Source: Bacteroidia bacterium
GTDB lineage: Bacteria > Bacteroidota > Bacteroidia > SXHM01
DNA: 64,000 nucleotides
Reading direction: 5' to 3'
Assembly (NCBI GenBank): GCA_022072225.1
Contig: JAJVIC010000007.1
Location: 366,150-430,149, forward strand
Position 1 is the stretch's first letter, and the number at the start of each line of letters is the position of its first letter. Both the position numbers and the translations under genes were made by a program. This document shows, piece by piece, positions 923-64,000 of the stretch. The notes under the pieces are model-generated. The model made no database searches, was not told the DNA's origin, and saw nothing but the letters and a program-made list of their open reading frames with translations.

Positions 923-2893
923 TCAATTTTTTAGTGCCTTTTCTATATCCTCAATAACATAATTAATATGTTTTAATTCATATTCATTAATCCAAAAAGA
1001 AGATTCTTTAAGTGCTGTAAGGTACTGGACATCTTCTTTTGTAGGATATTTTTTTATAAAATCAAACAGGTCAGATAGAGGGGAATGATTTATCTCAAAA
1101 TCAACCCTATCAAATGAACAAGATATGTACATGCCCGACCTTGTGTAAACTTGTTCCAGTGGAATTTTAAAACGTTTGCTAATCATTGCCCTTTTTTCAC
1201 TCAGCAGCTCAAAAACCAGTTTGTCCTTTTTATACGCATCTTCATTAAATTTATAATCTAAAATAACTATTGTGTTATAATTTGGCTTAGCTCCAATAAT
1301 TATATCATTTGTATTATTAAGAATTGCCATTATCGATAGCTTATTTATTCTTGAAGAATCAATTAAAGAAATACATTCTTTTTTCAACGAATCTTCAAGA
1401 TGGCTTTTAATTGAAAATAGCTCAGGATATTTCACAAAATTCGAATCCATTCCTGTCCAGTATTTTAAAGATTCATAAATTAAAGGGCGTGCATTTTTTG
1501 CTTCAATGGAACTGAATGTGCTTATATAGCTTTGAATCCAGCTCCGATAAATGCGGTACTCTAATGTGTCTGCTTTTATAAATTTTTTAAAATCATTAAG
1601 AAGAAAACTATTTATCTCATCATTACTAAAATGTGCCAGACCGTAATATTTTGAAATTGCGATATCAGCATCCGGTGTAATTTTTCTGTCATGTGAACTG
1701 ATAAATTTTTTCAGCGGCTCTATACACTCACTTAGTTCATTTTCTACAATTATTCTGCATACATCAAAAATCAAATCACGTGTGTCATTTTCAAGATGAT
1801 AATTAAGATAGGGAACATATTCTTTGCTTCCTATATTTATTAAAGCTTCAATAGTAAGATTAAATAAATAAGTGTTGTTGGTTTTAAGCAGCCCCAGTAA
1901 TGCTTCCGTTGCAGGCTTATATTTCATTTTGTTCAATGCTTTAATAATTTCAATTTTACCACCTTCTAATTGGTTGCGAACCGGATCCATTATATCTGAC
2001 GGGTAAACGCCATCTTCTCCGGTTTTATTCAAATAATTAATGAATATGGGACCAACAAAATCAGGGTCGTGCCCTGATAATTGTCTTACCGCCTCGCCCT
2101 GTACAACGCTGTTTGAATCGCTAAGTAATTGTAATAAGAGAACCCTTGATTTTTCTGAGTTTATATTTCCCATCAGCGTTGCGAGTCCAAACCTCGCTTT
2201 TACTGCAGTATTTCTAATCAACGTATCAAAGAGAGGGATATAGTGATTATAATTGGTCAATGCCAACATCATAATGTATTGAGGATGCATTGCACACAAT
2301 GTATCATTTATACACTTCCTGATTTTAGTGATCAGTTGTTTATGGTATTCCTTTAGTGATTTTTTACTCAATGCAAATTCAAGAAATTCTTCGAATTCAT
2401 TTAATGACTTGCCTGAATAATTATAAGTAGTAGTTTGAAATAGATCATATCTGATAGTATCTCCGGCTAAATAATAATCACCACTTGTGGGTGTCCATAC
2501 TTCAAATGCTTTACTTTTTAGTACACCTTGATAATACTCTGCCCATTCAGGATATTTTTTGATATCATTTTCCCATGCCTTTTTCGATTCTTCATTTAAA
2601 ACCTCTTTATTAAGAAATAAAATATACTCTTCTCCTTTTTCCATCGTTTCATAAGGACCATACCTGCCACTAAATCCTGATATCCATATAGTATCTTTTA
2701 ATTCACCCTTGTATATTTTCAAGGGTATAAGCTGTGCTCTTTTAGTCCCACCATTTACTACTTTAAATTTCCCAATTACATCAGAACTATCTATCATTTC
2801 TTTCCAGGAAGGATCTTCCCACATATCAGCCTTGCTATAATAAGTAACCGTAATAGCAAGTACAAATAGAAATACAAACCAATAAGTTTTCAT
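923..2893 (-). CDS. hypothetical protein with N-terminal signal/anchor peptide, low-GC, alpha-helical (HEAT/ARM-like) repeats
   Basis: 656 aa uninterrupted ORF; N-terminus MKTYWFVFLFVLAITVTYYSKA is hydrophobic; noticeably AT-rich relative to the neighbouring fabG and fumC; no recognisable catalytic motif. Confidence 0.45.
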   Translation of the reverse strand: MKTYWFVFLFVLAITVTYYSKADMWEDPSWKEMIDSSDVIGKFKVVNGGTKRAQLIPLKIYKGELKDTIWISGFSGRYGPYETMEKGEEYILFLNKEVLNEESKKAWENDIKKYPEWAEYYQGVLKSKAFEVWTPTSGDYYLAGDTIRYDLFQTTTYNYSGKSLNEFEEFLEFALSKKSLKEYHKQLITKIRKCINDTLCAMHPQYIMMLALTNYNHYIPLFDTLIRNTAVKARFGLATLMGNINSEKSRVLLLQLLSDSNSVVQGEAVRQLSGHDPDFVGPIFINYLNKTGEDGVYPSDIMDPVRNQLEGGKIEIIKALNKMKYKPATEALLGLLKTNNTYLFNLTIEALINIGSKEYVPYLNYHLENDTRDLIFDVCRIIVENELSECIEPLKKFISSHDRKITPDADIAISKYYGLAHFSNDEINSFLLNDFKKFIKADTLEYRIYRSWIQSYISTFSSIEAKNARPLIYESLKYWTGMDSNFVKYPELFSIKSHLEDSLKKECISLIDSSRINKLSIMAILNNTNDIIIGAKPNYNTIVILDYKFNEDAYKKDKLVFELLSEKRAMISKRFKIPLEQVYTRSGMYISCSFDRVDFEINHSPLSDLFDFIKKYPTKEDVQYLTALKESSFWINEYELKHINYVIEDIEKALKN

Positions 2894-3004
2894 TCTGTTA
2901 CAAATTTCTAATTTCTTTCTCTGCTTTATAATAGGTTGTAAACAAATATAGAAATTAACATCCTATATTAAATTCACAACTCCTTCAAAGGTTAAAAAAC
3001 CCCT

Positions 3005-3375
3005 CACACCATATCGCTCCCCCACAAAAACACCTCTTTAAACTCCCAAGCGATATCGCCCAATAAGATATTTTATTCTTCACACAATAAATCCATATCG
3101 CTTAACGTTATTAACGGTAAACGCTATTAATAAGCGATATCGCTGATCAATTAATGAGTAAGAAATTATTGCTGCGCGATATCGTTCAACACATCAGAAA
3201 GTGATTTATCCCAACATGCGATATGGAAAAACGGTTGCAATTGTTAATTGCATACCAAAGCGATATGGAAAAACAGTTTCATTGACCTTTTGTATTCACG
3301 TGCGATATGGATGAAGCATTACAATCGCCTTTTTATCGTTCACACGATATGGAAAAGGAGTTTCATTAACCGTTT
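3005..3375. promoter_or_regulatory. phased array of about 9 GCGATAT(C/G)G-core motifs at about 40-45 bp spacing, upstream of ORF 3422
   Basis: motif copies at about 3009 (inverted), 3049 (palindromic AGCGATATCGCC), 3093 (inverted), 3133 (palindromic), 3174, 3218, 3259, 3299, 3345; the last four are extended direct repeats CGATATGGAAAAAC(A/G)GTTTCATT(G/A)ACC. Confidence 0.45.
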
Positions 3376-3421
3376 GCATAATTCATTAAACTAATTTATA
3401 ACAACCAATAACACCATTAAC

Positions 3422-4096
3422 ATGAATAAAGTAAAAGTATCGGTAAATCATTACCACAAATTAGCTTACAGTAAGCTGGGCGTATTTGTAACAGGAGTAA
3501 AGGCGGGTATTTATAATCATCCCGAAACATTCAGCGATACTCCATTCAGCGAAGAAGAAGTAAGTGATACACTTAAAAACTACACCAAAACCTATGACGG
3601 TTATAAAAACAGGCTCGTGTCAAAAGGAAGTTTTAAAAGTGCTTGCAGCGCTCTTATAAAGATGCTCGACACGCTTGCGGTTTATGTAAACGAAACAGCA
3701 GAAGGTGATTACACTATACTAATTCTATCGGGCTTTAAACCCACACAGTCAAGCATCAGTTCATGGCTTCCGCCCTTGCAGCCCGAGGTAAAAGTATGGC
3801 GCAGCATAGAGCTGGGCGAAGTGTATGCAGAAAGCAATAAGCTGGTCAATGCCATTTATTACGGCTGCGTGGTTTTTAAAAACAGTGTGCCCGAAAAAAT
3901 TATGATAAAGCCCGGTGGAAAATTAGAATTCAGTAACAATGAAAATTTTGTGTGCATAGATATTACCAAAAGCCGCAGCAAAAAATTTATAAATCTTACC
4001 CCTGAGGTGATGTATTACTTTTATTTTTATGCAGCCAACGCCAATGGTGTAAGCCTGTTAAGCGAAGTAAAAAGTATTAAATGTTTGAAGGAGTAG
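3422..4096 (+). CDS. hypothetical protein
   Basis: 224 aa ORF directly downstream of the motif array; no recognisable domain. Confidence 0.45.
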   Translation: MNKVKVSVNHYHKLAYSKLGVFVTGVKAGIYNHPETFSDTPFSEEEVSDTLKNYTKTYDGYKNRLVSKGSFKSACSALIKMLDTLAVYVNETAEGDYTILILSGFKPTQSSISSWLPPLQPEVKVWRSIELGEVYAESNKLVNAIYYGCVVFKNSVPEKIMIKPGGKLEFSNNENFVCIDITKSRSKKFINLTPEVMYYFYFYAANANGVSLLSEVKSIKCLKE

Positions 4097-4120
4097 CGAA
4101 CAGTAAGTAGTTGGCAGTTG

Positions 4121-4204
4121 GTGTGTCACCCTGAGCGTAGTCGAAGGGCTTTATTTATTAAACTTTAGCAGTTAGTGTGTCACCCTGAGCGTAGTCGAAG
4201 GGCT
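4121..4204. repeat. two direct copies of REP-A element (GTTGGTGTGTCACCCTGAGCGTAGTCGAAGGGCT)
   Basis: copies at 4123-4150 and 4168-4204; same element at 4286-4313 (inverted), 4673-4698, 4721-4746, 19700-19755, 23571-23630 and 34371-34395, and a variant at 7243-7303. Confidence 0.6.
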
Positions 4205-4285
4205 AAATAATTATTTTTCCTGGATGTGTCTTACTGGTATACTCAAGCTGTTTTAAAGTATTTAAAAGTGAAATTTAATTATGAT

Positions 4286-4313
4286 GCTTCGACTACGCTC
4301 AGCATGACACAGC
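4286..4313. repeat. REP-A element, inverted orientation
   Basis: GCTTCGACTACGCTCAGCATGACAC is the reverse complement of the 4123 copy. Confidence 0.55.
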
Positions 4314-4321
4314 AAAAGCAC

Positions 4322-4654
4322 TCAATCGCTTTTTTTATCATACAAGCTGTAATTACTCAGATTATAACACGCTGCAAAATCTTTTAGCTTTTCCCAATTT
4401 TCATTAATCAAAGCTTCTTTTTTTCTGCGCGTCCATTTCTTCAATTGTTTCTCTCTTGCAATAGCTTGCTCGAATTCCTTAAATGCTTCCACATACATAA
4501 GCTTAACAGGTCTGCGATCATAAGTATATGCTGAAACATCTGTTCCATAATTATGATAACTTATTCGCTCGTTAACATCATTTGTAACACCAATATAATA
4601 ACTGTTATCAGAACACAGCAAAATATAGACATAGAGTTGTTTGAACACAGCCAT
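4322..4654 (-). CDS. GIY-YIG nuclease family protein (UPF0213-like)
   Basis: 110 aa; LYVYILLCSDNSYYIGVTNDVNERISYHN matches the GIY-(x10)-YIG signature, followed by the conserved R and E region (AIAREKQLKKW). Confidence 0.8.
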   Translation of the reverse strand: MAVFKQLYVYILLCSDNSYYIGVTNDVNERISYHNYGTDVSAYTYDRRPVKLMYVEAFKEFEQAIAREKQLKKWTRRKKEALINENWEKLKDFAACYNLSNYSLYDKKSD

Positions 4655-7303: not shown

Positions 7304-7316
7304 GAAACAAATAAAT

Positions 7317-8399
7317 ATGGATAAACTACTCTTCACTCCCGGACCTTTAACCACCAGCAAAACCGTTAAAGAAGCCATGCTTCACGATTACGGTTCGCGC
7401 GATGATAAATTTGTAACCATTGTTCGCGAAGTGCGTGAGAAATTGCTGGCACTTGCCGGAGTTTCAAAACAACAAGGCTATGAAACTGTGATTGTGCAAG
7501 GCTCGGGTACATTTGGCATTGAAGCAACCATTTCTTCGTCTGTTCCGCGTAATGGCCATTTGCTGATTGTAATCAACGGAGCCTATGGTCACCGTATGGC
7601 AAAGATTTGCAGTGTGCACGGTATCAAACACACATCATTGGTTTTTGCTGAAAATGAAATTCCAACCCTTGAGAAAACAGAAGATGCCCTGAAAAATGAC
7701 AACACAATAACACACCTTGCCATTGTTCACAGCGAAACCACCACCGGAATATTTAATCCCATTAAAGAATTTGGTGCGCTTGCCGCAAAGTATAACAAGA
7801 CGTATATTGTTGATGCCATGAGCAGTTTTGGTGCTGTTCCGGTAAATGTTGAAGAGTTTAATATTGATTTTCTCGTTTCTTCTTCCAATAAATGTATTGA
7901 GGGAGTTCCCGGCTTTTCATTCATTATTGCTAAGCGCGAAAAACTTTTGCAGTGCAAAGGACAGGCAAGAAGTCTTGTTTTGGATGTTTTTGCGCAGTGG
8001 GAAGGTTTGGAAAATGACGGACAATTTCGTTTTACTCCGCCAACACACAGCTTGGCGGCATTTCATAAAGCCCTGGAAGAATTAGAGGAAGAAGGAGGAG
8101 TGGCGGCACGTGCCGAACGCTACAAAGAAAACTACCAAACCCTTGTTGCCGGAATGCGCAAACTGGGTTTCAAAGAATACCTTGAACCCGAAAAACAGGG
8201 CTATATCATTACTTCGTTTCTGTATCCGGAGGGGAATTTCAACTTTAAACAGTTTTATAATGCATTGAACGATAAAGGTTTTGTTATTTATCCCGGTAAA
8301 CTAAGTCAGGCAGATGCTTTCCGTATCGGTAACATAGGAAAACTTTACCCAAAAGATGTGGAGGCTCTCCTACATTCAATAGCTCTGCTTCTGAAATAG
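7317..8399 (+). CDS. class V pyridoxal-phosphate aminotransferase (AGXT/PhnW/archaeal-type SerC-like)
   Basis: N-terminal LLFTPGPLTTSKTVKEAM matches the AGXT/PhnW family; about 360 aa; start placed at the ATG at 7317 because the ATG at 7299 lies inside the REP hairpin. Confidence 0.7.
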   Translation: MDKLLFTPGPLTTSKTVKEAMLHDYGSRDDKFVTIVREVREKLLALAGVSKQQGYETVIVQGSGTFGIEATISSSVPRNGHLLIVINGAYGHRMAKICSVHGIKHTSLVFAENEIPTLEKTEDALKNDNTITHLAIVHSETTTGIFNPIKEFGALAAKYNKTYIVDAMSSFGAVPVNVEEFNIDFLVSSSNKCIEGVPGFSFIIAKREKLLQCKGQARSLVLDVFAQWEGLENDGQFRFTPPTHSLAAFHKALEELEEEGGVAARAERYKENYQTLVAGMRKLGFKEYLEPEKQGYIITSFLYPEGNFNFKQFYNALNDKGFVIYPGKLSQADAFRIGNIGKLYPKDVEALLHSIALLLK

Positions 8400-8830: not shown

Positions 8831-10483
8831 TTATTGAAAAACAAGCTTTGTAGTATAAACACCTAGTGGAGTAGCCAAATTCAGCGAATAAAAACCGGAG
8901 GTTAATCCTAATGATTGTTGGCTCAACTGCAACTTTTGTTTCCCTTGAGTTACAGACACGGTTTGAGTATAAACCTCTCTTCCAAGGTTATCGGTTAAGC
9001 GCAATATACCTTCTGTAGCTTGCTCGCTATTAAATGATAGGTTTACCACATCACGCGAGGGATTTGGATAAACATTGAAATACGAAAACGGACTGTTTTC
9101 TTCCTTGACACCAATTGTTACAGGCTCTAATGTATGTTGTATATAGGTTACGTACATTTCATCTGCTGTGCTTAAACCAAATCCAACAGTATCAGGGCCT
9201 GGATTATTAAAGGTCGCCTCATGTATCAAACCTTCTGTCAAATCAACTTCCAGCAAGGGTTCAAAAGTACGGAAGGGTGGATGCGCCCAATCGTAATACC
9301 CTTGGTTAAATGTGTAGTCAACATTATAAAGCCCATTATAAATATGATCGCCCTTATCCCCATTTGCAGTCCGCATCCATACATCATAACCGGTACCTAA
9401 TTTATGGGTATGCGCCATCATTGACCAGATATACCAGGTCAAGTTGGTATCCGGGTAATACTGTTCTATCCTGTAAATAGAGTCCGGAAGGTTTGGATAA
9501 ATATGAAGGTTTAAAGGATCAGCACCTCCGTAATAAATCGGTGTTGAAATCATTTCGGCTTGGGCAGTTCCTACTGGTTGTGTATAAACATTAATATAAA
9601 ACTCAGCAGGCAAAATAGAATCAGTACTATAATTGGCAATATGATAATTGAGGTCTAAAACAGAGTTTGCCTCCCACGAAAAAGCAGTTCCTTCGGGCAA
9701 TACTAAATCCTGACTGTTTGGCCATTGGGCTATTATATTACTTGCATAGTAAACTCCGGCAGCATCTAAGATGGAGCCTACCGGTCGAAGGCCGGGAAGA
9801 AAAAATGTATCTAACCCGTCATTATATTTATAAAGTGCCGTGTGGTGTGACGATTCATTAATTGTAGTATTCAAACGATAAATTTCCTGTGCCTCTGACA
9901 GTTTTGTTTCATACTTATAAAAGTATTCAGCCTCTGAACTTGGGTTAAGGAAAAAGGGGCCATAATGTATTTGAAATCCTTCTGATACAGAAGGAGCGGC
10001 AGGGGCTTGAATGCGTGGCAATCCGGGTCCGTTATAATAGTCTGAAAGTATTTGAGTGTTTAAATATGACTCAGTAGGACCGGCACCAAATAAAATCCAT
10101 TGGCGAACCAATTCAATTTCTTCATAATCTAAATGAGGTAATCCGTCAGGCATGGCATTACCCATTGGAAGAGTAAGGTGTGTAACAGGGTCAATATCAT
10201 GGGATAGTTTTACAAATAAAAAACTTTTTTCGGGGTAGCCGGGCGCAACTAATTTCATTCCTTTTGAATTAGCCTCGGGGTTTACCGGATTTGTATTCAC
10301 CAATTCATTCCAAACATCGGTTTCGGTTCCTGATAGATTTAGCTGGCCGGAAGGGCTTCCTCCACTGTGGCAGCCTACTGTACAGTTAGCTTGCAACAGC
10401 GAATGAACCTGCTGAAAAGTAGATTGGGCAAATGAAGAAAAAACTGTTAATAATAAGGCAATTGTGGCGTAAAGTATTTTCAT
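8831..10483 (-). CDS. secreted protein with C-terminal T9SS type A sorting domain (Por_Secre_tail)
   Basis: signal peptide MKILYATIALLLTVFSSFAQS; C-terminal about 80 aa (VYPNPSRDVVNLSF...GFYSLNL...KLVFQ) matches the TIGR04183-type domain. Confidence 0.6.
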   Translation of the reverse strand: MKILYATIALLLTVFSSFAQSTFQQVHSLLQANCTVGCHSGGSPSGQLNLSGTETDVWNELVNTNPVNPEANSKGMKLVAPGYPEKSFLFVKLSHDIDPVTHLTLPMGNAMPDGLPHLDYEEIELVRQWILFGAGPTESYLNTQILSDYYNGPGLPRIQAPAAPSVSEGFQIHYGPFFLNPSSEAEYFYKYETKLSEAQEIYRLNTTINESSHHTALYKYNDGLDTFFLPGLRPVGSILDAAGVYYASNIIAQWPNSQDLVLPEGTAFSWEANSVLDLNYHIANYSTDSILPAEFYINVYTQPVGTAQAEMISTPIYYGGADPLNLHIYPNLPDSIYRIEQYYPDTNLTWYIWSMMAHTHKLGTGYDVWMRTANGDKGDHIYNGLYNVDYTFNQGYYDWAHPPFRTFEPLLEVDLTEGLIHEATFNNPGPDTVGFGLSTADEMYVTYIQHTLEPVTIGVKEENSPFSYFNVYPNPSRDVVNLSFNSEQATEGILRLTDNLGREVYTQTVSVTQGKQKLQLSQQSLGLTSGFYSLNLATPLGVYTTKLVFQ

Positions 10484-20734: not shown

Positions 20735-20844
20735 AGGCAAAAGCTCTGCACATATACCGGAAGGAGTGTTCCGAAGCACTGTTTTTTGTTAATGTATTGA
20801 AAATCAAAATCATATAAAATTTCCAGGGTCTGAGAAATTATTTC

Positions 20845-21085
20845 CAGGGCCCACGAAATTCCGTCAGAGGTATGGGATAAAATTTCGTGGCGCCATGAAA
20901 AGTTGTACGAGGCCCATGAAATTCCGTCAGAGGCATGGGATAAGATTTCGTGGTGCCATGAAAAGTTGTACGAGGCCCATGAAATTCCGTCAGAGGTATG
21001 GGATAGGATTTCGTGGCGCCATGAAAAGCTGTACGAGGCCCATGAAATTCCGTCAGAGGTATGGGATAAGATTTCGTGGCATCAC
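20845..21085. repeat. 63-bp tandem repeat, about 3.8 copies
   Basis: unit GCCATGAAAAGTTGTACGAGGCCCATGAAATTCCGTCAGAGGTATGGGATAAGATTTCGTGGC repeated with only 1-3 substitutions per copy; two frames are open through the array. Confidence 0.7.
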
Positions 21086-21175
21086 GCTTCCGGTAGCCTC
21101 CCCTAAAATTCTTCTCCTCAACAACCCTAATTTCCTTACATTTGCGCTCCTTTTTAAAAAATCAGCATAAATACT

Positions 21176-23563
21176 ATGAATAAAGTCATCATCTCCCTGC
21201 TTGTAATCCTTCTGGCAGGCATCACTGCTTCAAATGCGCAAAACCTTATTACCATTGACAGTCCGCAATACCAGCAACTGAAAAGCGAAGGCAAAATACC
21301 CATGATTCCCATGGAACAATTTGCCAAATACGTTCCCGAAAAAATATTGAATGCCGAAGACTTCGCACCCCGCGATGTTACCGGAGGCGGTCCCAATGTA
21401 AACTGCGGTTGCATGCAAACCCTTGATGGCAGCTACACCCTTGCCATGGGTCCTAACGATGACGGTTCTACAGGCCTTATCTCTTTGCCTTTTACTTTCT
21501 GCCTCTACGGAACAAGCCAAAACTCGATGTACATCAACAACAATGGAAACATCTCTTTTGGCACCACCTATGGTACCTTTTCTTCCAACCCTTTTCCCGA
21601 TCCCGGTTTTGTAATGGTTGCGCCTTTCTGGGCCGATGTGGATACCCGCGGAACAGGACAGGTATGGTACAAAGTAACTCCTACTTATGCCATTATCCGT
21701 TGGTACAACGTGGGCTACTACAGTTCACAAACCGATAAAATAAATGACTTCCAGCTTATTATTACCGATGGCAGCGACCCCATTATTCCCGGAGGTAACA
21801 ACGTAGCTTTTTGCTATGGCGATATGCAATGGACTACCGGCTCAGCTTCAAGCGGAGTGGGCGGCTTTGGCGGGACTCCCGCTACAGTAGGTGCTAACCT
21901 GGGCGATGGAACATCATTCGTTCAGTTTGGCCGTTTCGACCATGCCGGCAGCGATTACGATGGCCCTTTCAACAATGCCGATGGTATCAGCTGGCTCGAT
22001 AACCAGAGCTTTGTATTCAACGCCTGTGTAAATAATTCAAACATTGCACCCATTGCCGATAATGCCCTCGCCATCTGCGATACCATTCAAATCTGTGTGG
22101 GTGATACCGTTGCTTTTGATGTATCCTTCCTTTCGCCCGAACAAGGACAAATTACCACCACCACTATTGACACTTCAGGTGTTTCGGGTTTTCAGTTAAT
22201 CAGCAACAATTCAGGAAACATATCGTCTGTATCCGCAGTATTTTATGCCACCGAAGACAACATAGGCTTCAATACCTTCACCCTTTCGGCCAGCGACAAC
22301 GGAACTCCGGCACAAACCAACAACTTTGTGGTAAATATCTTTGTCAGCGAAATTGTTGATCCTTCCTTAATCGGTGAGTTTACCTATTGCGCTCCCGGAA
22401 GCGTAAGTATAACGCTCGACTCTGCTTTTGCCTATGAAAGCTGGACCTGGTCAACCGGTGATGTTAGTCCCGACTCGGTTTTAGACCCTTTGCTGGAAGG
22501 CAACTACTCTGTTACCTGCTTTAATGAGTACGGCTGCAACCGTACCCTCGATTTTTCGGTGGTTGAACTCGGTAACCTGCAAATAACCAATACCGTTACC
22601 GACATTCTTTGCAATGGCGCTGCCAACGGAAGCGTGGTTTCTCAGTCTAATGTACCTACTCAACTTTCATTCTTTTGGTCCGATTCACAGGGCGACACCA
22701 TTCATGTTGGTCTGCTTACACAGGGAACCGATCAGGTAAACGGTCTTGAACCCGGCACCTATTATGTTAGCATATACGATACACTGGGTTGTTTCTCTTA
22801 TTTAGACTCAGTAGTAGTTACCGAACCCGAGCCTTATGTAACCGACAACACAGCATCACCCGAAACCTGCGAAGATGCAAACGGAGTTGCTGTAGTTACC
22901 AGTGTTACGGGTAATACTGCGCCTTACAGCTATTTATGGTCGCCTTCAGGAGGAACGGATGCTACGGCAACCGGTCTTGCTGCCGGAACTTATACCGTTA
23001 CCATTACCGATGTTAATGGCTGCGAAAGAGTGGACACTGTTATTGTTTCGGGAATTGCTTCACCTACGGCCAACTTCAGCAGCGACCCGCTGGCTGCTTT
23101 GCTGGATGTTCCGGTTACCTTTGCCGACAGTTCGCTTGCCAATGGCGACAGCATTGTAACCTGGTTCTGGGATTTTGGCGATGGAACTACCGACTCGGTT
23201 CCTAACCCTGTTCATGCGTATGGTGATACCGGTACATACCCCGTAATGCTGGTTGTTACCAACACCGAAGGCTGCACCGACACCATTTATAACGACATTA
23301 TTGTAATTACCGAAATTGTAGTTCCTAATGTATTTACACCTAATGGCGATGGTTACAACGACACCTTTGTTATTCAATACTTAAAAGAACTTTACCCGGG
23401 CAGTAAACTGTATATCTACAACCGCTGGGGCAAACGTGTTTACAAAAGTGATAACTACCAGAACGACTGGGATGGTGAGAAACACAGCGAAGGAACTTAT
23501 TTCTATACGCTCTTTGTCTCTGACGGAACCGAGAAAAACGGAACAATTACTTTGCTGAGATAG
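21176..23563 (+). CDS. cell-surface protein: NIDO domain, SprB repeats, PKD domain and C-terminal CHU_C (type B T9SS / gliding-motility-associated) domain
   Basis: signal peptide ending ASNAQN; NIDO-like NISFGT...[12 protein letters not shown]; SprB-like CNGAANGS and [11 protein letters not shown]...[10 protein letters not shown] repeats; [14 protein letters not shown]; C-terminus [19 protein letters not shown]...[11 protein letters not shown]...WDG matches TIGR04131. Confidence 0.75.
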
Positions 23564-35989: not shown

Positions 35990-36376
35990 CACAAAACACC
36001 TCATTTCACCTATAGAAACTCTCATTTAATACTAATCAATTAACACTTTGTGTGTATCAATTAACAGTAAATTCTAATTAATTAATACTCATTTCGTACC
36101 AATTAATAGTAAATGTGTATCAATTAATAGTAAATTCAAATCAATTGCCACTAACTTCTAATCAATTAACTGTAAATGCTAACGAATTACCATTAACTTC
36201 TAATAAATTTCCAATTAATTCGTATCAATTAACTATAATTGCTCCTAAATTAACACTGCAAGTCCCGAAATTGAGAGTGCAGGTAAACAAAATCCCATCG
36301 TAAGTCAAAAAATCCAGCCTCTAACCTCCAACTTCTAACCTCTAACTTCCAATCTCCAACCTCTAACTTCCAAAAC
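35990..36376. promoter_or_regulatory. repeat-dense intergenic region: 6 or more copies of TCAATTAAY(A/T)GTAAAT-like direct repeats, then 4 tandem CTCTAACYTCCAA units running up to the HTH gene ATG
   Basis: copies near 36035, 36054, 36100, 36119, 36162, 36225; CCAYTAACTTCTAAT at 36143 and 36190; 14-15 bp tandem units at 36319-36376. Confidence 0.5.
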
Positions 36377-36748
36377 ATGGCAAACCGCTCCTACACTTCC
36401 AACCTCTTCTTAAACATAGAACATGTCTGCGCAGTCCGCAACATCGACCGGCCTTTCACCTTCCTGCGCAAGCACGGTTTTACCCACAACACCGCCTCAC
36501 AGCTTGTCAACAATGAAGTAAAAGAGATCAACCTCGCCTACATCGAGAAGCTCTGCCTCATTTTTAACTGCACCCCCAACGATTTATTTGATTACTCCCC
36601 TCCCAAAGATGCAGCACAAACAAACAACAACCCGCTCATTGCAATTGTAAAAACCCGCAAACCCGTAAACTTCAACGAGCTTCTCCGCGACATGCCCCTC
36701 GATCAGCTCAAAGAAATTGAAGAAGAAATTCGTAAGCGCAAAGGCTAA
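36377..36748 (+). CDS. XRE-family helix-turn-helix transcriptional regulator
   Basis: 123 aa; IEKLCLIFNCTPNDLFDY resembles the C-terminal end of HTH_3 (Cro/C1-type) domains. Confidence 0.5.
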   Translation: MANRSYTSNLFLNIEHVCAVRNIDRPFTFLRKHGFTHNTASQLVNNEVKEINLAYIEKLCLIFNCTPNDLFDYSPPKDAAQTNNNPLIAIVKTRKPVNFNELLRDMPLDQLKEIEEEIRKRKG

Positions 36749-60630: not shown

Positions 60631-61365
60631 TTATATTACCAGAGTTTGGTATAGCAGTTTTTTCGCTTTTTGAGTAAGAATATAGCGCTGAAAGGAGGCG
60701 CGCACCAGCAAATCTTTGCTGCGCAGGTTCATAAGCAACTTGGCTAAACCGCCTTGCGAGTAGCCGGTTAGTTGTATAAGTTCCGTGTATAAACCGCTTC
60801 CTCCGTTATGAAAATGAATAAGCAATTTTGCAGCCGCCTGGGGTGTACCATTACCTGCACGTATCAGTTTTTGACTGAGCAGGCTTGAGCTTAGCTTTGA
60901 AATAAGTTCATCGGTAGGCTCCGCTTTTTCGGGTAAAGAATAGATTTCCTCATTTGAAGGAATTGTTGCTGAGGAGGTGGGCTGAATTAAGTGATTGGAT
61001 GGAATAGGTGTTAAGGATGGGGAATGAACAGGCTGATTTATTCCGGTTGCTTGTTCATTTAGGGAATGAAGATTTTGATTTATTCCACTTTCTTGTTCAT
61101 TTACGGAATAAAGTGGTTTGTTTATTCCCTGTTGTTCTGATGGTGTGGAATGAATTAGCTGCTTCATTCCCAAATCGCTGTCGGTATTCCTTTCAGTAGC
61201 TTGATTTGTACTTTTCAGTTGCTCGGATAGGGAATGAAGTGCCAATTTATGTTCTAATTGGGAACATATTCCTCTTAATTGATCATTTTGTTCCAGCAAA
61301 ACGTTAATTATTTTGTTGAGACGGGCAATTTCTGCCTCATGTTGGGTTGAATTATTTTCGCTCAT
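60631..61365 (-). CDS. hypothetical protein with N-terminal coiled coil, internal about 20-aa tandem repeats and possible C-terminal winged-helix
   Basis: 244 aa; repeats INKPLYSVNEQESG / INQNLHSLNEQATG / INQPVHS encoded by about 60-bp DNA repeats at about 61020-61200. Confidence 0.4.
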   Translation of the reverse strand: MSENNSTQHEAEIARLNKIINVLLEQNDQLRGICSQLEHKLALHSLSEQLKSTNQATERNTDSDLGMKQLIHSTPSEQQGINKPLYSVNEQESGINQNLHSLNEQATGINQPVHSPSLTPIPSNHLIQPTSSATIPSNEEIYSLPEKAEPTDELISKLSSSLLSQKLIRAGNGTPQAAAKLLIHFHNGGSGLYTELIQLTGYSQGGLAKLLMNLRSKDLLVRASFQRYILTQKAKKLLYQTLVI

Positions 61366-61402: not shown

Positions 61403-64000
61403 TTACCGGATCACCGTAACCGTTCCTATATTCTTCTTCTCCGCTTCACCAATAGCAGAACCCTGCCACACATGTCCGTCTTCAAACGTAGCCGTTATAT
61501 GCCAAACATAAGCCCCTTGAGGAACTACCTGCCCCTGATACCTTCCATCCCAACCCTCAGCCGGGCGGCCATCTTCTAATTTAGTGCTATTCCACAATAG
61601 GTTTCCCCACTTGTCATATACCGAACATTCATACTGAGCCAATCCTCTTCCTTTCGGCAAAAATAACCCCGGCTCACCGTCTTCCCCATTTATCATAGCA
61701 TTCGGCACATACAATCCGTTTTCCATTTCCGGCTCTATGTATTCTAAAGCAGTGTCGGTGCAGCCAAATCCGTTTTCTGCTATAAGCGTTACTAAGTAAT
61801 TCCCGGGGTTTTGGTAGTTATTAATCGGATTAGTTTCCGTTGAGGTATTTCCATCACCAAAAGTCCAGTTATAGTTGTTTGCACCTGACGAAGAATTTGT
61901 GAAAATAATTTGTCCATCAGGGTCATAAGGATCTTCATAATCCCACGTAAAACCTGCAACAGGCTGAGGAAAAACGGTCACAGCATTGTTCACCGTTATT
62001 GAATCCGAGCAACCGCCAGCACCTGTAACAACAAGTGTTATATCATATTCTCCTGCTTCATAATATGTGTGTTGAGGATTACTTAAAACAGAAGTTGTGC
62101 TATCACCGAAATTCCAGAAATATTGCAGCACTCCGTTTGAATTATCAGTAAAATCAATAGAAAGCGCAGGGCAGCCTTCTGTTGAAGAAAGTGAAAATGC
62201 AGCAACAGGATTTTCATATCCTGTAAAAATTTGAGTTGTTGTATCGCTGCACCCAAGTGAATTAGTTGCAACTAAAGTAATAGTAAAAACTCCGAAATTG
62301 TTGAATGTAAGAACAGGCGCTACAGTATTATAATTATTCCCGTTGCCAGCATTCCAGTTATAAGATATTGCGCCTGTGCTGTTATTAATCGTTGAAACAA
62401 TAGCAGGATATGTACAACTCGAATTCTGAGTTATCGCAAAACTTGCAACAGGTGTAGGATAAACTGTTACAGGAATATTGATGAACGAAGCAGAACAACC
62501 TTCGCCATCTGTAACTGTAACCATTAAAGAATCTTCTTGTTGAGGGAAAACAGAAATACTTATGCCGCTTTGTCCGTCCGACCAACTATAACTATAATTT
62601 CCATTGCCACCGGTCACATTGGCAGTAACAATGGTTTCTGCACCAGGACAAACAGTTGCAGGATTTGCAACAGTTATATTTATTTCATCCGGTTGATAAA
62701 TAGTAACGAGAAGTGTATCAATGCATGCATTTGCATCTCTCACACTAAGCTCGTATGTCCCTGCAATTAAATTCTGTAAATCCTCATCACTGCTGCCATT
62801 CGACCATGTATAAAAATAAGGTTGCGTTCCGCCCGTAACACTTACATCAATAGCTCCGTCAGCCAATCCAAAACACGAAACATCGGTAACGGATGTTACG
62901 CTTGCATCTAATAATCCCGGCTCTGTAAGCAATGTATCTGCTGTTAATGAACAACCATTTGCATCCGTAATTATAACCGAGTACGTTCCCGATGCAAGGT
63001 TTGAAATTGCTTGTGTTGTTTCACTCGTTGACCATAAATACGAATAGCTTACAACTCCACCCGAAACAATTATTTCAGCCGAACCATTTGCCGTTCCATT
63101 GCATAAGGGGTTCTGAATTTGAAAAGCAGAACTCATTACCACAGGAGCAACAAGCTGAATTGTAGAAGTAGTTGTACAGCCACTGTTATCGGTAATTTCA
63201 ACAGAGTAACTTCCTGCCGCAAGGTTGCTTATTATTTGCGTTGTTTCACTTGTTGACCATAGCAGTGAGTAAGGAGCATTGCCACCCGAAACACTCACAG
63301 TTGCAGATCCGTCACTTGAATTATAACAACTTACTGCATAACCATTGTAGTCAGAAACAGCCTGAACTGCTGCATTAATTTCAACAGGCTGTTGAATTTG
63401 TATTTCTAAACTGTCTGTACAACCATTTGCATCCGTTACAATAACTGTCTGTGCTCCTGCTGCAAGACCTGTTGCCTGTGCACTTGTTGCTCCGTTGCTC
63501 CATAAATATCCATAAGGTGCAACACCACCCGAAACACTCACGGTCGCACTTCCATCGCTAAATCCAAAACACGAAACATCCACAACGGAACTTGCAGTAA
63601 TTGAAATTGCAGTTGGCTCTGTAAGCACAACCGTTTCGTTGTGGGTACAACCGTTTGCATCCGTCAAAGCCAGAGAATAACTTCCTGCTTCAAGTCCTGA
63701 AATATCTTCATCAGCAGAAACAAATCCGTTTGGCCCCGACCATGAATAGGTATAAGTTTCACAATCTGCACCACCTGCAAACTCAGCATTAATATTTCCG
63801 TCAAAAGCCCCGTTGCAACTGATATTTAAGCCACTTGTGTATGTTGAAACCTGAATAGAAGTTGTTGAAACAGTACTTGGTTCTGTAAGCGTAACACTTG
63901 CCGATGCTGTGCCCCCGTTTGCATCCGTAACAGTGAGTTGATAAAACCCGGCATTCAATCCGTTTATCGTTCCTGTTGTTTCGCCATTACTCCATAAATA
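61403..64000 (-). CDS. SprB-like adhesin with CHU_C / type B T9SS C-terminal domain (5' end outside the window)
   Basis: C-terminus LYVPNAMINGEDGEPGLFLPKG...YECSVYDKWGNLLW; PKD-like segments (YFWNFGDSTTS, YNWTFGDGNTS); multiple SprB repeats (CNG.A.GS....SGG..PY.Y.WS); the reading frame stays open to the window edge. Confidence 0.7.
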   Translation of the reverse strand, partial: YLWSNGETTGTINGLNAGFYQLTVTDANGGTASASVTLTEPSTVSTTSIQVSTYTSGLNISCNGAFDGNINAEFAGGADCETYTYSWSGPNGFVSADEDISGLEAGSYSLALTDANGCTHNETVVLTEPTAISITASSVVDVSCFGFSDGSATVSVSGGVAPYGYLWSNGATSAQATGLAAGAQTVIVTDANGCTDSLEIQIQQPVEINAAVQAVSDYNGYAVSCYNSSDGSATVSVSGGNAPYSLLWSTSETTQIISNLAAGSYSVEITDNSGCTTTSTIQLVAPVVMSSAFQIQNPLCNGTANGSAEIIVSGGVVSYSYLWSTSETTQAISNLASGTYSVIITDANGCSLTADTLLTEPGLLDASVTSVTDVSCFGLADGAIDVSVTGGTQPYFYTWSNGSSDEDLQNLIAGTYELSVRDANACIDTLLVTIYQPDEINITVANPATVCPGAETIVTANVTGGNGNYSYSWSDGQSGISISVFPQQEDSLMVTVTDGEGCSASFINIPVTVYPTPVASFAITQNSSCTYPAIVSTINNSTGAISYNWNAGNGNNYNTVAPVLTFNNFGVFTITLVATNSLGCSDTTTQIFTGYENPVAAFSLSSTEGCPALSIDFTDNSNGVLQYFWNFGDSTTSVLSNPQHTYYEAGEYDITLVVTGAGGCSDSITVNNAVTVFPQPVAGFTWDYEDPYDPDGQIIFTNSSSGANNYNWTFGDGNTSTETNPINNYQNPGNYLVTLIAENGFGCTDTALEYIEPEMENGLYVPNAMINGEDGEPGLFLPKGRGLAQYECSVYDKWGNLLWNSTKLEDGRPAEGWDGRYQGQVVPQGAYVWHITATFEDGHVWQGSAIGEAEKKNIGTVTVIR

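Follow-up and report, generated by a model that had tools for sequence, protein, structure and literature searches.

A base-exact array of nine palindromic sites before an uncharacterised Bacteroidota gene, a candidate platform for a dimeric transcription factor

Bacterial promoters normally have one to a few regulator sites, and transcriptional control in Bacteroidota is poorly understood. Phased multi-site regulator arrays are a known kind of system. Fis sites upstream of rRNA and tRNA promoters, about three in number, are degenerate and are bound by a global protein. The sopC centromere of the F plasmid consists of 12 repeats of 43 bp, each with an inverted repeat bound by SopB, and the origins of iteron plasmids (P1, F, R6K, pSC101) have iterons of 21-22 bp upstream of a co-varying gene, which is the classic Rep/iteron layout. 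At the Pptx promoter, BvgA~P binds as six head-to-head dimers, spaced 22 bp apart on a single DNA face, with the last dimer abutting the -35 element, and this large number of sites sets a high activation threshold (PMC7250471). LytTR-controlled promoters have a pair of direct repeats of about 9 bp, located 11-13 bp apart (12 bp gives a period of about 21 bp) just upstream of -35 (PMC6193735).

Here we describe an array of nine palindromic or half-palindromic sites in a window of 64,000 nucleotides (the whole stretch of DNA that was analysed) from a Bacteroidia bacterium. The array precedes ORF224, the gene of an uncharacterised protein of 224 aa. With a probability of roughly 60%, we consider the array to be a cooperative same-face binding platform for a dimeric transcription factor that controls the ORF224 promoter. 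The design is family-wide: 6-22 sites locked to whole helical turns stand before the members of one uncharacterised Bacteroidota protein family.

Geometry and conservation of the array

The array is located in an AT-rich divergent intergenic region (2894-3421, 528 bp) between a HEAT-repeat-like ORF of 656 aa on the minus strand (923..2893) and ORF224 on the plus strand (3422..4096), a gene that is always linked to arrays of this sort and the cytoplasmic product of which joins a helical bundle at the N-terminus to an FN3 domain at the C-terminus. The array had earlier been placed after the 656-aa ORF, which is in fact divergent from ORF224 on the opposite strand; this ORF is a neighbour in this genome only and lies outside the conserved module. 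Genes near the locus (HEAT-like, GIY-YIG, SDR, fumarase, serA, serC) include housekeeping genes on a 460-kb contig; the context is chromosomal. The segment 923-4654 has a GC content of 0.31-0.38, below that of its surroundings, and looks like an inserted island. REP elements announced at about 846 and 4123 were indeed found as REP-like palindromes near 846 and at 4118-4312. The REP-like sequence GTGTGTCACCCTGAGCGTAGTCGAAGGGC occurs in two direct copies (at about 4118 and 4176) and one inverted copy (about 4284-4310), just before the GIY-YIG nuclease gene (4322-4654, minus strand), and a separate REP-like palindrome, CATTGCGAGCGAAGCGAAGCAATC, is present at about 849 (region 840-870).

In the 64-kb window there are nine copies of the 8-bp core CSATATSG, where 2.2 would be expected and 0 of 100 shuffles reach nine, and all of them are confined to the array (span 3009-3352). 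They start at 3009, 3051, 3093, 3135, 3177, 3219, 3261, 3303 and 3345, with the ATAT centres at 3011, 3053, 3095, 3137, 3179, 3221, 3263, 3305 and 3347. The step is exactly 42 bp over eight consecutive intervals, or four helical turns (4 x 10.5), and therefore all sites are on one face of the DNA. The related word GCGATAT is found 15 times in the window (5.3 expected), ten of these within the array. Outside the array, CGATAT/ATATCG is found 0.32 times per kb; at that density, eight more cores would fall on the exact positions with a probability of about 1e-28.

None of the sites is assigned a strand. Site 1 (3008..3017, ACCATATCGC) combines a variant half-site with a GCGAT half-site. Sites 2 (3050..3059) and 4 (3134..3143) both read GCGATATCGC, a perfect 10-bp palindrome, and flank site 3 (3092..3101, TCCATATCGC), the aaatccATATcgc site of which is kept in the orthologous loci L001 and L002. 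Site 5 (3176..3185) reads GCGATATCGT and is followed by three copies of GCGATATGGA, namely sites 6 (3218..3227), 7 (3260..3269) and 8 (3302..3311). Site 9 (3344..3353, ACGATATGGA) is promoter-proximal. In general, each site is made of two half-sites, GCGAT or the variant TCCAT, in the pairings GCGAT·ATCGC, GCGAT·ATGGA and TCCAT·ATCGC; TCCAT·ATGGA is never seen. The variant half-site is oriented differently in the two parts of the array: on the left it faces away from the gene, on the right toward it. This palindromic symmetry together with the reversal of orientation fits a dimeric protein and speaks against a strand-specific RNA signal. Right-hand units also have a longer motif in common, CGATATGGAAAA.

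The array sequence is the same in two independent assemblies and is thus not an assembly artefact. Tandem Repeats Finder missed it, because its units are too diverged and their conservation is limited to the core. A scan of the genome collection for four CGATAT cores at 42-bp steps gave at least 120 loci, dominated by ordinary high-identity tandem repeats, with no comparable array among the low-identity matches listed; the same scan of viral contigs returned ordinary repeats only. Some other explanations of a repeated locus were considered and rejected. CRISPR arrays have repeats of 23-47 bp with unique spacers of similar size and usually come with cas genes; here the conserved part is only 8-10 bp, the period is 42 bp and there are no cas genes among the window neighbours. 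A coding reading of the repeats (21 bp being seven codons) is not tenable, as no ORF spans the diverged array. Nor is a methylation switch at GATATC, a sequence present in only three of the nine cores.

The preliminary description had reported about nine phased CGATAT-core copies, and these are real. It had put their spacing at 40-45 bp; four turns and a common face were right, the range was not. Three perfect palindromes had been counted, two of which stand (AGCGATATCGC, at 3049 and 3133), while the third is the GCGATATCGT of site 5. What had been taken for two inverted half-sites is better described as the variant half-site TCCAT/ACCAT. As for the last four units, said to be extended direct repeats, two of the four match the 27-bp repeat with at most three mismatches and the other two are 63-71% identical over 35 nt.

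The closest relatives of ORF224 share 70% and 62% protein identity (loci L001 and L002) and have different flanking genes: McrBC/EVE upstream and TMEM175 downstream in L002, a PEP-utilising enzyme downstream in L001. In both loci the same cores recur every 42 bp and occasionally after 63 bp (six turns), and L001 has one 41-bp step, beside a degenerate core. The ATAT of the last core starts 75 bp before the ATG in the window and likewise in both orthologous loci. When the three loci were aligned without gaps back from the ATG, pairwise identity was 92% in core columns vs 52% between cores, the latter value being close to that of third codon positions (57%), and no indels were found across five intervals. 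Likewise, in 28 aligned units from the three loci the information is limited to about ten positions, with the consensus aGCGATAT(C/G)G, and is near zero in the remainder of the 42-bp unit. Judged from these alignments, selection acts on the core and its exact spacing and on almost nothing else. This makes the window array especially informative, since its units have decayed to neutrality save for an 8-10-bp palindrome and base-exact spacing.

The only inter-core stretch kept in all three orthologs is a block after site 9 (3360..3379, plus strand; GTTTCATTAACCGTTTGCAT / GTTTCATTAACCnTTTGCAT). It contains TTTG, a possible -33 element, and may be part of a non-canonical core promoter. In none of 13 family loci do the last 130 bp before the ATG contain a canonical Bacteroidetes -7 box (TAnnTTTG), and a sigma-70 scan as well as inspection for sigma-54 patterns revealed no convincing promoter. 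The ORF224 promoter is thus probably weak or non-canonical, requiring a bound factor. The DNA between the cores may contribute through its shape. In the window, AAA/TTT tracts are phased at 10.5 bp (z = 7.5, matched by 0 of 1000 shuffles in which every inter-core segment was preserved); for the orthologs, z is 2.4 in L002 and phasing is not significant in L001. Tract centres are about 5.5, 14.5, 25.5 and 36 bp from the core dyad, that is, at half-integer turns, an arrangement that should curve the DNA toward the core-bearing face. Such curvature would offer proteins 42 bp apart a way to interact.

The linked protein family and its arrays

ORF224 had been regarded as an orphan. A word-indexed search yields five homologs only, but an exhaustive profile search finds a family of 586 cluster representatives at E <= 1e-3, 212 of them at E <= 1e-10. 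Most members are 220-240 aa long and match over the full length; all are named only 'hypothetical protein' and are without functional annotation. Judging by their sources, among them a Bacteroidia MAG and a Flavobacterium sp., they come from Bacteroidota. In a structure model based on 23 sequences (pLDDT 90.4), residues 8-102 form an N-terminal helical bundle, and the C-terminal part is a beta-sandwich. Fold searches gave FN3 domains only, Pfam and PHROGs searches gave FN3-type matches only, in a few members, and NCBIfam gave none. The profile of the N-terminal domain found nothing meaningful in PDB, no signal peptide was detected in ORF224, and PADLOC had no defence-system match for it. A basic patch, K-x-R-K-K (residues 183-187 of the window protein), is nearly invariant in the family alignment, and the median pI of the family is 8.3. 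A Cys close to the N-terminus (C-S-x-x-Y-H) and another at the C-terminus are present in most members (window residues 6, 12 and 221); in the window clade Val replaces the N-terminal Cys. From the sequences, the two terminal Cys residues might form a disulfide or a metal site joining both ends of the protein.

Loci of the family often lie beside defence or mobile genes (L002 1565-5367; L169 4848-6521; L176 1970-2603). These neighbours include McrBC with an EVE domain, AAA_15/AAA_21 with DUF3226, a HepT/nucleotidyltransferase toxin-antitoxin pair and transposases near L164, which suggests that the ORF224 module sits in variable genome islands. No family homologs were found in 72,556 plasmids, 50,697 phages or viral contigs.

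Whether homologs of ORF224 carry upstream arrays was a check proposed in the preliminary description, and the answer is clear: all 13 distinct loci with readable upstream DNA, representing members that share 21-70% identity with ORF224, have an array with a 21/42-bp period (41 bp in L176). Upstream autocorrelation at 21/42 bp is 0.43-0.81 as compared to 0.30 +/- 0.03 in 909 background windows. In two further members the array is seen indirectly, as read-through N-terminal translations with a 7-residue periodicity. The family arrays end 50-200 bp before the start codon. Their motif is lineage-specific and mostly palindromic, and the repeat sequence shifts with the protein clade. L006 and L008 have GAAnnTTC palindromes every 21 bp. 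Other arrays with 21-bp units are those of L173 (about 22 copies) and L175 (about 12), whereas 42-bp units in six copies are found in both L167 and L172, and L176 has a 41/42-bp unit. The repeat is GCTGTACTGCAAAGGAGCAAT in L164 (about 11 copies), ATCAAAAYCACGATGGGTTTT in L169 (about 10) and GAAATCTATATAGAAGTCT, with the palindrome TCTATATAGA, in L179. Where a relative has 42-bp units, two different 21-bp sub-sites can be distinguished in them. Several of the relatives have units that are 80-100% identical to one another.

A regulator gene flanks the array in seven of the 13 sequenced loci and also in the context of P0128, which is available as a gene table only and lists a LytTR protein. In L169, L176 and L179 a REC-LytTR response regulator is directly upstream on the same strand; in L006, L008 and L172 the neighbour is a divergent Cro/C1-type HTH gene, and in L173 a weak GerE/LuxR match adjoins the array. 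The Cro/C1-type proteins of L006 and L008 are 41% identical, and both arrays are of one core type. Since a single geometry is found beside three unrelated regulator families, some common factor may set it. No regulator gene adjoins the array in the window, L001 or L002, and no LytTR gene was found among the window ORFs scanned. Autoregulation would place copies of the array motif before the linked regulator genes as well; a search there gave weak hints only.

The window holds two more phased arrays. The second (36033-36263) consists of about eleven units of 21 bp (ATCAATTAACAGTAAAT / gtATCAATTAACAGTAAATtc), all in exact register; three CT-rich 21-bp units come next (36313-36373). The array ends about 130 bp upstream of a Cro/C1-type HTH_26 gene (36377-36748, 123 aa), possibly that of a regulator which controls its own expression through this array. 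The third (20820-21092) has a 63-bp unit composed of three different 21-bp sub-units, in about four copies of 94% identity, and contains 20-bp palindromes of the type TTTCnnGGCGCCnnGAAA. It is found about 95 bp upstream of a T9SS cargo gene (21176-23563, 795 aa; NIDO, PKD, SprB repeat, CHU_C). With two more 21n-bp arrays before unrelated genes, the phased array is a recurring promoter architecture in this organism and is not dictated by ORF224.

Several other repeats are worth recording. At 61020-61128 there is a 42-bp repeat in 2.3 copies with inverted motifs of the GGAATGAA...TTCATT type, inside or beside an unannotated ORF of 244 aa (60631-61365, minus strand) and downstream of a SprB/PKD/CHU_C T9SS gene (61403-63958). 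A giant ORF of 7596 aa (36836-59626, minus strand), made largely of tandem repeats of about 80 aa (240-252 bp), is probably a T9SS-secreted adhesin-like surface protein and dominates the GC-skew profile in its part of the window. In L010, an unrelated genome, a 21-bp array of about 12 copies of CGATATGATTCCAYGAC (7314-7565 in minus-strand coordinates) comes immediately after the end of an AraC-type regulator gene and so is another 21-bp phased array beside a regulator.

What may occupy the array

We propose the following mechanism. A dimeric, sequence-specific regulator would fill the nine same-face sites (8-10 bp each). Filling would be cooperative, helped by curvature from the phased A/T tracts. 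Across 42 bp, dimers can reach each other only if the DNA bends, if they have large oligomerisation domains or if there are unseen intermediate sites. In this respect, weakly specific binding at intermediate 21-bp registers is conceivable, and in the window the midpoints between cores are flanked by A/T tracts just as the cores are. The promoter-proximal dimer would contact RNA polymerase at the weak, non-canonical promoter, and the outcome would be a steep threshold-type switch that turns ORF224 transcription on or off. The protein bound would be a transcription factor other than ORF224, perhaps acting as an activator. Among the relatives, the likely factor is the neighbouring LytTR response regulator or HTH protein of the Cro/C1 type; in this genome it would be encoded away from the array locus. 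A cooperative regulator array had already been suggested in the preliminary description. This suggestion is strengthened by the exact phasing, the selection on core and spacing, the position close to the gene start and the regulators adjacent in relatives, while the factor and the cooperativity are what we infer from them. Counting against a transcription factor platform is the number of sites, 9-22, which is far above that usual for a bacterial promoter. Further points against it are the lack of an adjacent regulator gene in the window and its two closest orthologs, the one geometry beside unrelated regulator families, the weak hints only of the motif before the regulator genes and the missing canonical -7 box.

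If a dedicated regulator were not involved, the most obvious candidate for binding would be the ORF224-family protein itself, which, in the manner of an iteron/Rep or centromere-like pair, would use its own upstream array for autoregulation or for building a self-assembled nucleoprotein structure. ORF224 is the sole gene linked to the array in all 13 loci, the repeat differs from one protein clade to the next, the window clade has no regulator gene next to the array, and the conserved basic patch and the median pI could be put to use in DNA binding. However, a helical bundle with FN3 is no recognisable DNA-binding fold, and regulator genes do stand beside the arrays in over half of the sequenced loci. 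Arrays of the same design before unrelated genes in the window further lower the standing of self-binding and raise that of a transcription factor. We therefore regard it as unlikely. Its boldest form, in which the family would be a new class of sequence-specific DNA-binding proteins, each member co-evolving with its own chromosomal iteron-like array and assembling a wrapped nucleoprotein particle, is distinctly improbable; if true, ORF224 and the array would be a self-contained module of a gene plus its own binding array. Similarly doubtful is a mainly structural role, with the array serving as curved DNA or as a platform for nucleoid-associated proteins in upstream activation or silencing, much as phased Fis sites do at rRNA promoters, and the cores being positioning signals. 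The AT-rich region, the A/T tracts phased at 10.5 bp and the recurrence of the geometry with unrelated motifs and beside unrelated regulator families would all be accommodated by such a role. Yet the strongest selection is on a GC-containing palindrome of 8-10 bp, as is typical of a sequence-specific dimer, of the three orthologs only two have significantly phased tracts, and the motif, unlike the sites of global nucleoid proteins, is absent from the rest of the window.

The possibility of an RNA-level function, in which the repeats would belong to a long 5' leader or to a small RNA with reiterated protein-binding motifs, appears very slim. It draws on the GGA contained in the right-hand copies, as in CsrB-type sponges, on the longer motif shared by the right-hand units and on the missing canonical -7 box between the array and the ATG. 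But the left-hand copies have the opposite orientation and the central ones are palindromic, the spacing is base-exact and equals whole helical turns, Rfam gave only chance-level matches to miRNA models (E 0.1-0.3), and the unconstrained sequence between the cores leaves no room for a conserved RNA structure. Even less can be said for a plasmid, integrated or former, as the source of an iteron-type origin (one of the options named earlier for this DNA) or a sopC-like centromere. A palindromic binding core within tandem units is what would be expected of a ParB/SopB-type centromere and resembles the sopC repeats, and 21-22-bp units upstream of a co-varying gene recall the Rep/iteron layout. There is, however, no Rep, ParA or ParB gene: parA/parB (or parM/parR) genes occur neither among the window neighbours nor in the 13 related loci. 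Moreover, the locus is embedded between housekeeping genes, no DnaA box was found within 6 kb (the nearest TTWTNCACA is at 9579, and there are seven in the window against 13 expected), GC skew does not turn, and the plasmid and phage collections contain no homolog of the protein; the origin or centromere reading is already close to refuted. Just as far-fetched is a decayed minisatellite or a repeat-number contingency locus (phase variation) with no binding function. The nearly identical units of several relatives could slip, but in the window clade divergence to neutrality outside the core makes slippage impossible, core and spacing are kept across three species-level lineages, and the array is identical in independent samples.

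Comparison with described systems

The locus offers both a ready-made bait for finding the regulator and a natural system for studying cooperative threshold switching and DNA wrapping. It also flags an unannotated family whose expression is evidently tightly controlled. Set against the plasmid systems, the array is like sopC in its tandem units, each about four turns long and built around a short palindromic core for protein binding, but it is chromosomal, lies upstream of an unrelated gene, is without sopA/sopB-like genes and does not conserve the non-core sequence of its units. With iteron origins the likeness is in the relatives, where about 6-22 units at two-turn spacing stand upstream of a gene and the repeat co-varies with the gene lineage; against this, ORF224 is no winged-helix Rep, both DnaA boxes and a replicon context are missing, and no family member turned up in the plasmid and phage collections. 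The window array has 8-10-bp palindromic cores at four-turn spacing, the relatives 21-bp units. Phased Fis sites are similar in that same-face sites on bent DNA form an upstream activating region, but here the motif is sharp and restricted to a single locus within 64 kb.

Promoters of the LytTR type (AgrA, ComE, HdrR/BrsR) are reminiscent of the family arrays because of the period of about 21 bp, which is seen in the distant relatives, and the LytTR genes directly upstream in three distant family loci. A LytTR site is a direct-repeat pair, though, and the window array lacks such a pair, having nine palindromic or inverted sites at 42 bp. The likeness to BvgA at Pptx and Pfha is closer in kind: inverted-repeat same-face sites stand at whole turns, in the window array with steps of 42 bp and in the orthologs of 42 or 63 bp, and from far upstream they run down to the core promoter in the case of BvgA and may do so here. 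Differences are that BvgA has 3-6 sites at 22 bp, whereas the array has nine at 42 bp and the relatives 10-22 at 21 bp, that no NarL/LuxR-type response regulator is adjacent in the window, and that Bacteroidota are a phylum with another promoter grammar. In the literature we found no description of the gene and array module. The combination of nine sites (6-22 in relatives), exact four-turn phasing, strict linkage to an FN3 family across Bacteroidota and decay of everything except core and spacing is apparently undescribed. By analogy of layout, its nearest characterised counterpart is BvgA~P at Pptx.
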